Sequence record: PQ330092
Reading direction: 5' to 3' (one strand)
Length of the DNA stretch: 64,000 nt
Source: Escherichia phage JP4
The translations under genes and the position numbers were made by a program. The notes beneath the pieces were generated by a model that saw only the letters and a program-made list of their open reading frames with translations, did not search any database and was not told the DNA's origin. Shown here in pieces: positions 41,381 to 41,954 of this stretch; the first letter of the stretch is position 1, and the number at the start of each line of letters is the position of its first letter.

Positions 41381-41414
41381 GGTGACAGCAGATGTTGTTG
41401 TCACCTTTTTTTTT
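41381..41414 (+). terminator. rho-independent terminator
   Basis: GGTGACA-11 nt-TGTCACC then 9 T; preceded by TGaTATAAT at 41367-41375. Confidence 0.75.
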
Positions 41415-41954
41415 AATCCTGAAAGGTTCCTATGAGGAAATGATTAAAAGCCTAATCCACTCGAAAATGTAGAGGGTAGATGAGTAGTCCTTTCAGTACG
41501 AACAGCAGATGAAACCCGTTAGATGATGGCATAGTTTGAACCACTCACGGCAATGCGGCTGTATAAAGAACTCCAATAGGATAAAGAGAGTTCCTCGATA
41601 GACATATAAGGATCGCACCTTACCAATTATCTAAGGGAGATTTCATGAGAAATTTGCGGTCGGAATTATACAATATAGTTGCGTCCAAATTTTGTGAAAT
41701 CAAATACAAGTACTGGTCATATGGTATTTGTATTATGTGTCGGGATGTTTAAGACCGACGACCGTTGCTACAAGAACCGCGATAGAGAGAAACAGAGCAA
41801 CCCGCTTTCGTCTCGTAAGAGAATTCGTGATATGAACTATGTGAAGGCCACCAGCGTCAAACTTTTTTGTTCTTTCCCCTGCGGGGGGATGAAATATGCT
41901 CAAGCAAACCCCGTCAATATTAATTAAAAGAAAATAGTACTTGTAGAATTAGAC
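41415..41954 (+). other. ~540-bp region of low coding potential (candidate ncRNA or regulatory leader)
   Basis: no long ORF with SD apart from a micro-ORF; long-range complement CTGAAAGG 41422-41429 / CCTTTCAG 41492-41499. Confidence 0.3.
41645..41752 (+). CDS. micro-ORF (35 aa), Cys-rich
   Basis: AAGGGAG SD 5 nt upstream; MRNLRSELYNIVASKFCEIKYKYWSYGICIMCRDV. Confidence 0.3.
   Translation: MRNLRSELYNIVASKFCEIKYKYWSYGICIMCRDV

Follow-up and report, generated by a model that had tools for sequence, protein, structure and literature searches.

A conserved structured RNA in a 64,000-nt stretch of Escherichia phage JP4, with relatives in jumbo phages and enterobacterial islands

To our knowledge, large, conserved and pseudoknot-rich RNAs are rare among bacteria and phages, and are represented by RNase P, the group I and group II introns, OLE, GOLLD and ROOL. 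RNA II of ColE1 is a pre-primer transcript of ~550 nucleotides (nt) that has its own sigma-70 promoter and a G-rich segment, whose folding matters, and which is portable and involves no element-encoded protein; its persistent hybrid with DNA is cut to prime synthesis, under the control of the antisense RNA I; HK022 put and Bacillus EAR are processive-antitermination RNAs of 70–120 nt that act strictly in cis. ROOL and GOLLD RNAs form RNA-only homo-oligomers (PMC12286853), and phage PA5oct, which belongs to the same broad clade as the phage considered here, has four plus-strand non-coding transcripts (ncRNA001–004) of 236–619 nt as determined by RNA sequencing, two of which reach ~5% of the phage reads (PMC7318152). 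The IMG/VR catalogue of structured RNAs contains 8,495 unnamed candidates of 29–151 nt (PMC10690425). The element analyzed in this work lies at positions 41419–41917 on the plus strand of a 64,000-nt stretch of Escherichia phage JP4 (sequence record PQ330092), hereafter the window, and very probably is a conserved structured RNA, judging from the comparison of homologous sequences. The best explanation, and on balance a probable one, is that these positions constitute the gene for a compactly folded, non-coding RNA of ~500 nt, which may act in trans.

Structure and conservation of the RNA

The window is DNA of an Asteriusvirus jumbo phage, and its interval 41351–41960 shares 99.5% identity with Escherichia phage UB and 97% with 121Q and PBECO4. 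The interval, with a G+C content of 0.40–0.45 compared with ~0.30 in the surroundings, bears no annotation in the curated 121Q, G17, Munch, BF and GAP32 records, and its open reading frames (ORFs) have no significant Pfam match, in agreement with an earlier reading of the bare sequence (the original prediction) that had seen no convincing gene here and had proposed either a structured RNA or a leader-peptide regulatory element. The first of these proposals is borne out by covariation and conservation; the second fails, as the ORF in question is not conserved and the genes next to the RNA vary from paralogue to paralogue. Folding of the single sequence is no better than that of shuffled sequences (z = −1.1), and the structure emerges from the comparison of homologues; since the single-sequence fold is unremarkable, the case for the interval rests on that comparison.

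Homologues were collected by pattern scans and, after these, by an nhmmer profile of the family, which gave 141 matches in 137 loci and which matches the JP4 RNA body (the family core, 41419–41917) at 41414–41924 with E = 1e-119; in a degenerate pattern scan of genome contigs, 118 of 120 were chance matches among the matches listed. From the non-redundant homologues, 31 representatives of less than 95% identity were aligned with MAFFT (alignment A1, to which the counts below refer). RNAalifold predicted 63 pairs with compensatory changes in 38 of them, and a scan for stacked covarying columns, together with a mutual-information scan, added helix P1 and several pseudoknots; the curated structure comprises 93 pairs in 19 helices, 4–5 of which are pseudoknot or kissing helices. 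The proportion of paired cells is 94.8%, compared with 76.4% after shuffling and 37–42% when the partners are slid, and the covariation score is 0.514, compared with 0.18 and below 0.1, respectively, the slid-partner control being favorable by construction because the structure came from the counted alignment, with the shuffles and the pair-type number unaffected. Changes on both sides are found in 66 of the 93 pairs, and the observed value was reached by none of 500 shuffles on each of five measures; compensatory substitutions go beyond the phylogenetic expectation, as is generic for conserved structured RNAs. Moreover, the plus strand is the strand of the folded RNA, because G·U cells outnumber A·C cells by 218 to 29.

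The 5′ domain (41419–41496; plus strand, as for all RNA features below) is formed by P1 (41419–26/41489–96), in which CTGAAAGG (41419–41426) pairs with CCTTTCAG (41489–41496). These long-range complementary segments had already been pointed out in the original prediction, each at a position 3 nt off, and they constitute an 8-bp helix across the homologues with compensatory changes on both sides in seven of the eight pairs. P1 encloses two hairpins, namely 41427–31/41435–39 (5/5 pairs with changes on both sides) and P2 (41452–62/41472–79; 7/8 pairs) with the conserved loop GAAAAUGUA, and is crossed by a 3-bp clamp (41484–86/41497–99; 2/3 pairs) that is topologically strained against it. Domain 2 (41502–41562) consists of the helices 41502–06/41558–62 and 41516–19/41547–50 around a variable hairpin of short or long form, and its conserved strands are AGAUGAAACCCGUUAG and GGCAAUGCGGC. 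An AUG of this domain (41553–55) makes a tertiary pairing with CAU at 41603–05, which was detected by the mutual-information scan and is 100% paired, one of its pairs being G-C in 25 and A-U in 6 representatives. In the following region (41568–41639), the hairpin 41568–73/41588–93 exposes a loop (41579–81) that kisses 41630–32, and the covariation-counted helix 41607–10/41619–22 is accompanied by the invariant motifs GAUAGACAUAUAAGG and UAAGGGAG, the latter at 41632–39.

The long hairpin P6 (41705–15/41722–32; 9/11 pairs with changes on both sides) engages its loop (41716–21) with 41831–36 to form the pseudoknot PK1, in which all six pairs are compensatory and 99.5% of cells are paired, and which was detected independently by two scans. 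The 3′ core (41738–41829) contains the hairpin 41738–41/41757–60 and a three-way junction of covariation-counted helices (41778–82/41825–29, 41785–89/41805–09 and 41812–14/41819–21); the conserved 15-nt loop AAACAGAGCAACCCG of the helix 41785–89/41805–09 holds the GCAAC (41797–801) that pairs with GUUGC (41764–68) in the pseudoknot PK2, likewise a covariation-counted helix. PK1 and PK2 are the best-supported tertiary pairings, and the pairings 41553–55/41603–05 and 41579–81/41630–32 and the clamp are weaker yet consistent; the pseudoknot helices as a group are 99.5–100% paired. The 3′ module (41846–41917) is composed of block F (with CCAGCGUCAA, 41851–60), a U6 run (41863–68), a CCCC/GGGG hairpin (41875–79/41884–88) built of C-G and U-G pairs only, an AUGAAA sequence, and block H (CAAACCCCGUCAA, 41905–17) with its invariant columns. 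The GC-rich stretch singled out in the original prediction is found within this hairpin as CCCC-TGC-GGGGGG at 41876–41888. Across the family, the spacer between block F and the hairpin is bimodal (1–16 nt or 33–45 nt); the long form, present in approximately half of the copies, is a covarying hairpin followed by U6–7 and is terminator-like, and the JP4 copy has the short form with the U6 run only.

Approximately 100 columns of A1 are invariant, many of them unpaired, and the invariant unpaired motifs are GAAAAUGUA, GAUGAG, AGAAACCCGUUAG, GGCAAUGCGGC, GAUAGACAUAUAAGG, UAAGGGAG, CGACCGU, CGUCA (twice), and GGGGGGAUGAAA. In RaK2, both CGUCA motifs read CUUCA and the ACGG strand of the helix 41516–19/41547–50 is also changed, and the two CGUCA blocks seem to co-evolve; the search for a partner of these blocks, by the mutual-information scan among others, returned only invariant 4-bp candidates (GAUG, ACGG) with no covariation. 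By analogy with ribozymes, RNA-protein cores and RNA-only assemblies, a precise three-dimensional fold is suggested, because many invariant nucleotides are unpaired and pseudoknots are present.

Occurrence in jumbo phages and bacterial islands

The ~500-nt core is 66–76% identical across phage genera and is found in jumbo phages of Salmonella, Klebsiella, Erwinia, Xanthomonas, Serratia, Pectobacterium, Cronobacter and Yersinia, with the phage-type matches sitting on contigs of about 350–380 kb. Rak2-like jumbo phages have 4–5 dispersed matching places per genome, all on the same strand. For example, the whole genome of EC22.5-2 (OR845138) carries four copies on the plus strand at ~90, 143, 223 and 333 kb, which are mutually ~70–74% identical and beyond which a profile search of this genome gave no further copies; five copies each are present in GAP32, fHe-Yen9-04 and the uncultivated genome 3300012988, four in 121Q, and one in the JP4 window, and RaK2 has divergent full-length members, one of them at the syntenic site upstream of dam. 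In a neighbor-joining tree, the copies cluster by orthologous locus across genera and not by genome; the duplications must therefore date far back, with every paralogue retained since. The copies are located at 35, 99, 178, 261 and 341 kb of the 359 kb of GAP32, at 25, 93, 174, 260 and 335 kb of the 354 kb of fHe-Yen9-04, and at 90, 193, 247 and 327 kb of the 349 kb of 121Q; in these three genomes and in 3300012988 they are fairly evenly spread, with gaps of 44–112 kb and none clustered. For copies placed randomly on a circle, the smallest gap has a probability of ~0.005–0.05 per genome; these values are not independent and amount to essentially one observation because the genomes are syntenic.

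Both transcription signals named in the original prediction are recovered. A sigma-70-type promoter with the extended −10 sequence TGnTATAAT (GAGACA, 16 nt, TG-A-TATAAT; 10/12 in a consensus scan, with TG) is located at 41349–41376, just beyond the limits given originally, and is presumed to be active; TGnTAnAAT occurs within ~90 nt upstream of 61 of the 67 distinct family copies. Between this promoter and the RNA body, the intrinsic terminator of the upstream gene 40496–41350 occupies 41379–41414, with a 13-pair hairpin (5 G-C pairs; 41379–41407) followed by a run of nine T (U9 in the RNA). Two terminator-like sites were found in the region compared with 0.6 expected, and ARNold-predicted terminators are annotated at the equivalent site in the records of G17, GAP32 and Munch. 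With the −10 element before the hairpin, a transcript started there would open with the intact terminator. The order of promoter, hairpin and U-run is kept in the orthologues of Munch, Kaldavass, BF and GAP32 (the c1 group, to which the JP4 copy belongs), and the paralogues other than this group have no hairpin between promoter and RNA.

The flanking genes of the four paralogues are mutually unrelated. The c1 copy is syntenic in all genera, between proteins of ~284 and ~175–206 amino acids of unknown function, downstream of which lie the Dam methylase and cytidylyltransferase genes. In 121Q, c2 has a structural-protein gene on one side and a gene of unknown function on the other; c3 (326639–327149, plus strand) lies between two minus-strand genes, those for endonuclease VII and gp595, a position indicative of a stand-alone unit; and c4 starts 57 nt after a sigma-factor gene. 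One paralogue follows the gene of the phage RNA polymerase sigma factor by 57–100 nt in both Asteriusvirus (121Q gp167) and Alcyoneusvirus (RaK2); this adjacency was considered as functional evidence and rejected, as the pair is 1.6–4 kb apart in Eneladusvirus, and it is treated as synteny. The proteins encoded by the phage neighbors matched only PHROGs or Pfam families of unknown function. Taken as a whole, the RNA is probably a stand-alone gene, and it would likewise probably form a self-contained transcription unit that is read by the sigma-70 RNA polymerase of the host as soon as infection begins.

Two annotation matters touch these loci. In EC22.5-2 (OR845138), an extra plus-strand ORF of 323 amino acids (222061–223032) is located just upstream of c3; neither the annotation of 121Q nor the corresponding spacing (326508–327345) accommodates it, and it may be an insertion. 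In several GenBank records, up to 4–5 coding sequences (CDSs) per locus are annotated as hypothetical proteins over the RNA, e.g., in 121Q (NC_025447.1, 247799–247954, gp516, minus strand), PQ390715, PP886230, OR699282 and PV654397; these small CDSs are probably spurious.

In bacteria, a full-length member with its own TGTGATATAAT promoter was found in 2 of 5,426 complete E. coli genomes (394.6 bits). The bacterial copies are full length (292–395 bits) and keep the structure, with canonical pairs numbering 79/92, 76/84 and 85/90 in three of them and canonical pseudoknot pairs ranging from 17/18 to 19/20. In E. coli LR-29-1, the RNA resides in an island of ~10.7 kb between ffs and ybaA, together with an integrase that is split by IS3, a resolvase and PDC-M45 (DuOB, DUF488, mSLOG/DUF4326), a candidate defence system. 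Only the RNA is common to this island and the phages, the best match being a paralogue of Serratia phage BF (80.6%), and no phage homologues were found for the flanking proteins of the island. The RNA is followed there by ~700 nt of non-coding DNA with an AT-rich stretch of repeated TATCGATCG units, which could be operators or an origin.

Eleven more loci, including a Buttiauxella metagenome-assembled genome (MAG) and several metagenome contigs, hold the RNA in a conserved arrangement, which was read where the flanks are covered and which some loci, being short or divergent, display in part. An integrase or large serine recombinase comes first and is followed by the RNA, by a cI-like HTH-S24 repressor in convergent orientation, by a 286-amino-acid protein of unknown function, and then by an LprI-domain protein and a DNA invertase; in an Enterobacteriaceae MAG, the RNA adjoins thiM and thiD. 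The islands are ~10 kb in size and belong to Enterobacteriaceae, with recombinases of the large serine or the tyrosine type. Homologues of the 286-amino-acid protein occur in Enterobacter, Klebsiella, Raoultella and Atlantibacter, and the three island variants traced by this marker (93% down to 51% identity) all contain the full-length RNA (293.7–315.7 bits), which is kept even where the marker protein is only 51–57% identical. Each of these variants has an HTH_35 gene of the Cro-like kind and a slot whose cargo varies, being KwaA/KwaB-domain (Kiwa-like) proteins, a protein with a PLD domain, or SMC_N together with DUF6602. Multi-copy in jumbo phages and single-copy in the islands, where it comes with its promoter, the RNA appears to belong to the core of both the jumbo phages and a widespread cI/cro island family.

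Elsewhere in the window, four copies of a repeat of ~71 nt (240–310, 575–645, 1215–1285 and 2084–2154) consist of a TTGCAT- or TTGACA-like sequence, 17 nt, TATAAT and then GAGCGGGGGAA, and have the appearance of strong early promoters in multiple copies, with a G-rich ribosome-binding site. Direct repeats of many further families, 25–220 nt long and spaced by 200–1400 nt, are present at ~3200–10700, 14500–15100, 19000–22300, 23100–28700 and 33500–34200, which suggests arrays of diverged paralogous small genes with common peptide motifs.

Function and competing explanations

The RNA may act in trans as a folded RNA at high dose, forming the core of an RNA-protein particle or working as a ribozyme-like or oligomeric RNA, a reading whose chances fall somewhat short of even. 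The host sigma-70 polymerase would transcribe it immediately, from a promoter that is independent of a −35 element and of the same type as those used in uninfected bacteria; several copies per genome would raise the dose of the RNA, and the islands would carry it to make use of the same process, to mimic it or to interfere with it. A more far-reaching view, which is offered tentatively, is that the family represents a new class of large RNA, catalytic or particle-forming, or a protein-independent RNA-primed origin, that is core to Rak2-like phages, with the islands being their satellites or specialized antagonists and interacting with them by means of this RNA. Several points weigh against a trans-acting RNA. 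The even spacing of the copies and their portability to small islands fit a cis-acting chromosomal element at least equally, and no partner protein is consistently adjacent in the phages. In JP4, the strong terminator between the promoter and the RNA body should stop many transcripts, and the RNA may run into the downstream mRNA because no terminator follows this copy. The MAFFT alignment used for counting is also the one from which the structure had been taken, and the promoter use, RNA ends and abundance of the family members are those presumed from sequence.

The main rival, which is nonetheless unlikely, is an RNA-primed replication origin, in which a transcript of ~500 nt hybridizes persistently near the G-rich 3′ module and primes DNA synthesis in the manner of ColE1 RNA II or the T4 R-loop origins, with 4–5 such origins per phage and one per island, by which the island would replicate once excised. 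The same-strand orientation and roughly even spacing of the copies would suit such origins, as would the self-contained and portable nature of the element, which is the sole sequence common to phages and islands; the invariant G6 run after the U-run or terminator, the two co-varying CGUCA blocks in the 3′ module, and a length and promoter layout that resemble what is generally known of ColE1 RNA II point in the same direction. However, ~100 invariant and mostly unpaired nucleotides and 4–5 pseudoknots exceed the needs of any known primer RNA, and GC skew follows gene orientation only, minima being missing at three of the four copies in EC22.5-2. Moreover, one copy sits at a convergent strand switch, and the JP4 copy lacks a separate unwinding region, because only 38 nt remain to the next ORF.

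Because of the island context, a role in conflict is possible, although improbable. The island RNA would be the antitoxin, sensor or decoy partner of a system encoded by the island, which the phage copies neutralize as mimics, for which pseudo-ToxI of phage PhiTE is reportedly a precedent, or else the island RNA would be a dominant-negative decoy directed at jumbo phages. Such a role would account for the linkage of the island RNA to the cI-like HTH-S24 repressor, HTH_35, 286-amino-acid and LprI-domain proteins and to adjoining defence-type cargo (KwaA/KwaB domains, PLD, SMC_N plus DUF6602, PDC-M45), and it is consistent with host-type promoters of the phage copies that suit immediate expression and with the retention of several divergent paralogues. 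The phage copies, however, are core, syntenic and ancient across genera, whereas typical anti-defence genes are variable and accessory; the island proteins beside the RNA, the cargo excepted, have no PADLOC match, and no toxin was identified.

A cis-regulatory 5′ leader of the genes from 42 kb onward, whether a giant riboswitch-like attenuator or a processive-antitermination RNA of the HK022 put or EAR type by which polymerase would pass the terminators further on, is very improbable. The order of promoter, structured RNA, terminator-like hairpin (in about half of the copies) and co-oriented genes is what a leader would present, and the JP4 copy has no terminator before the ORF 41955–42575; yet the downstream genes differ in every paralogue and 121Q c3 precedes opposite-strand genes, which together make a leader or antitermination role unlikely. 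In addition, the island RNA converges on the cI-like gene, the conserved modules extend past the internal terminator, and the size and complexity are far above those of known leaders.

The ORF of 35 codons (41645–41752, plus strand) described in the original prediction is present in JP4, where it is preceded by AAGGGAG, and is not a conserved feature of the RNA element. Its ATG is replaced by ATA in 121Q, EC22.5-2 and G17, its frame is disrupted by stops and an indel in Munch, RaK2 matches the region only across the UAAGGGAG motif, and the variable region 41640–41702, which it overlaps, is deleted in several paralogues of the 31-sequence alignment; the supposed consensus Shine-Dalgarno sequence is the invariant RNA motif UAAGGGAG, and the ORF overlaps covarying helices, including P6. 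The family alignment shows no 3-nt periodicity in column entropy, and its gap lengths do not follow multiples of three. A leader-peptide or attenuator element, for which the ORF is not conserved and the downstream genes vary between copies, or a decayed protein-coding gene, for which codon periodicity and a Pfam match are lacking and conservation tracks base pairing, is scarcely credible.

Each of the earlier large RNAs opened a field, and the present family is easy to study, given that its hosts are E. coli and relatives and that the phages 121Q, PBECO4, phAPEC6, GAP32, RaK2 and CBB are cultured; the 4–5 diverged paralogues per genome and the chromosomal versions in Enterobacter, Klebsiella and E. 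coli are natural experiments. If trans-acting, it would be a new functional RNA at work in giant phages from the first minutes after infection onward; if an origin, it would account for the start of replication in phage genomes of 350 kb. Either way, the link to islands with defence cargo points to an unrecognized interaction between jumbo phages and small mobile elements. A practical consequence concerns the 3–5 probably spurious hypothetical proteins placed over RNA loci in several GenBank records.

Comparison with known RNAs

Rfam 15 (4227 covariance models, including those of group I and II introns, RNase P, tmRNA, 6S, GOLLD, ROOL, OLE, HEARO, riboswitches and ribozymes) gave no match at the gathering score in the whole 64-kb window; a permissive scan of 41300–42050 returned only a snoRNA at 17.7 bits compared with a cut-off of 80, and the Rfam scan of nine family loci returned nothing consistent. 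ARAGORN found no tRNA or tmRNA genes in the window, and on 30 family loci it found tRNAs in only one, ~3 kb from the RNA, so a tRNA linkage like that of GOLLD and ROOL is not seen. A group I intron was rejected, as the copies are intergenic with their own promoter and no Rfam intron model matched at E ≤ 10, the core not being mapped by hand. A hammerhead ribozyme was considered because GAUGAG ... GAA surrounds a G-C-closed helix, and was rejected because the family has (C/U/G)AG(A/U)UGAG and only GA before the next helix in place of CUGANGA and GAAA, with no Rfam hammerhead match. The PA5oct non-coding RNAs were also rejected as homologues, with no nhmmer profile similarity and no family motif in common. 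With neither an Rfam match nor a description of the family found in the open-access literature searched, the family is rated as a previously undescribed RNA class.

The put and EAR elements are similar in being promoter-proximal folded RNAs with terminators after them, and differ in that the context of several family copies is inconsistent with a cis role. ColE1 RNA II is alike in layout, i.e., in length, its own sigma-70 promoter, a G-rich segment and portability; it has no sequence relation to the family, which has a much richer tertiary structure, shows no partner like the antisense RNA I, and has no support from GC skew for an origin role. For the PA5oct transcripts, expression is known and there is no structure model, whereas the present family has a structure model obtained from sequences alone. 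Short pieces of the family may be among the candidates of the IMG/VR catalogue, because the source data are the same IMG/VR intergenic regions, although the part of that publication considered here describes no multi-pseudoknot RNA of ~500 nt, no paralogy and no island link (PMC10690425).

ROOL (RF03087) and GOLLD (RF01998) belong to the same size class of ~0.5–0.8 kb, with many helices and pseudoknots, and stand alone on phage or prophage DNA; like the present family, they are large, ornate RNAs of unknown function. The family differs from them in having no covariance-model similarity, in being hosted by enterobacterial jumbo phages and islands, and in having 4–5 ancient paralogues per genome with no tRNA neighbors. 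By analogy, the self-complementary loop pairings of this family could be used to build homo-oligomers as in ROOL and GOLLD.

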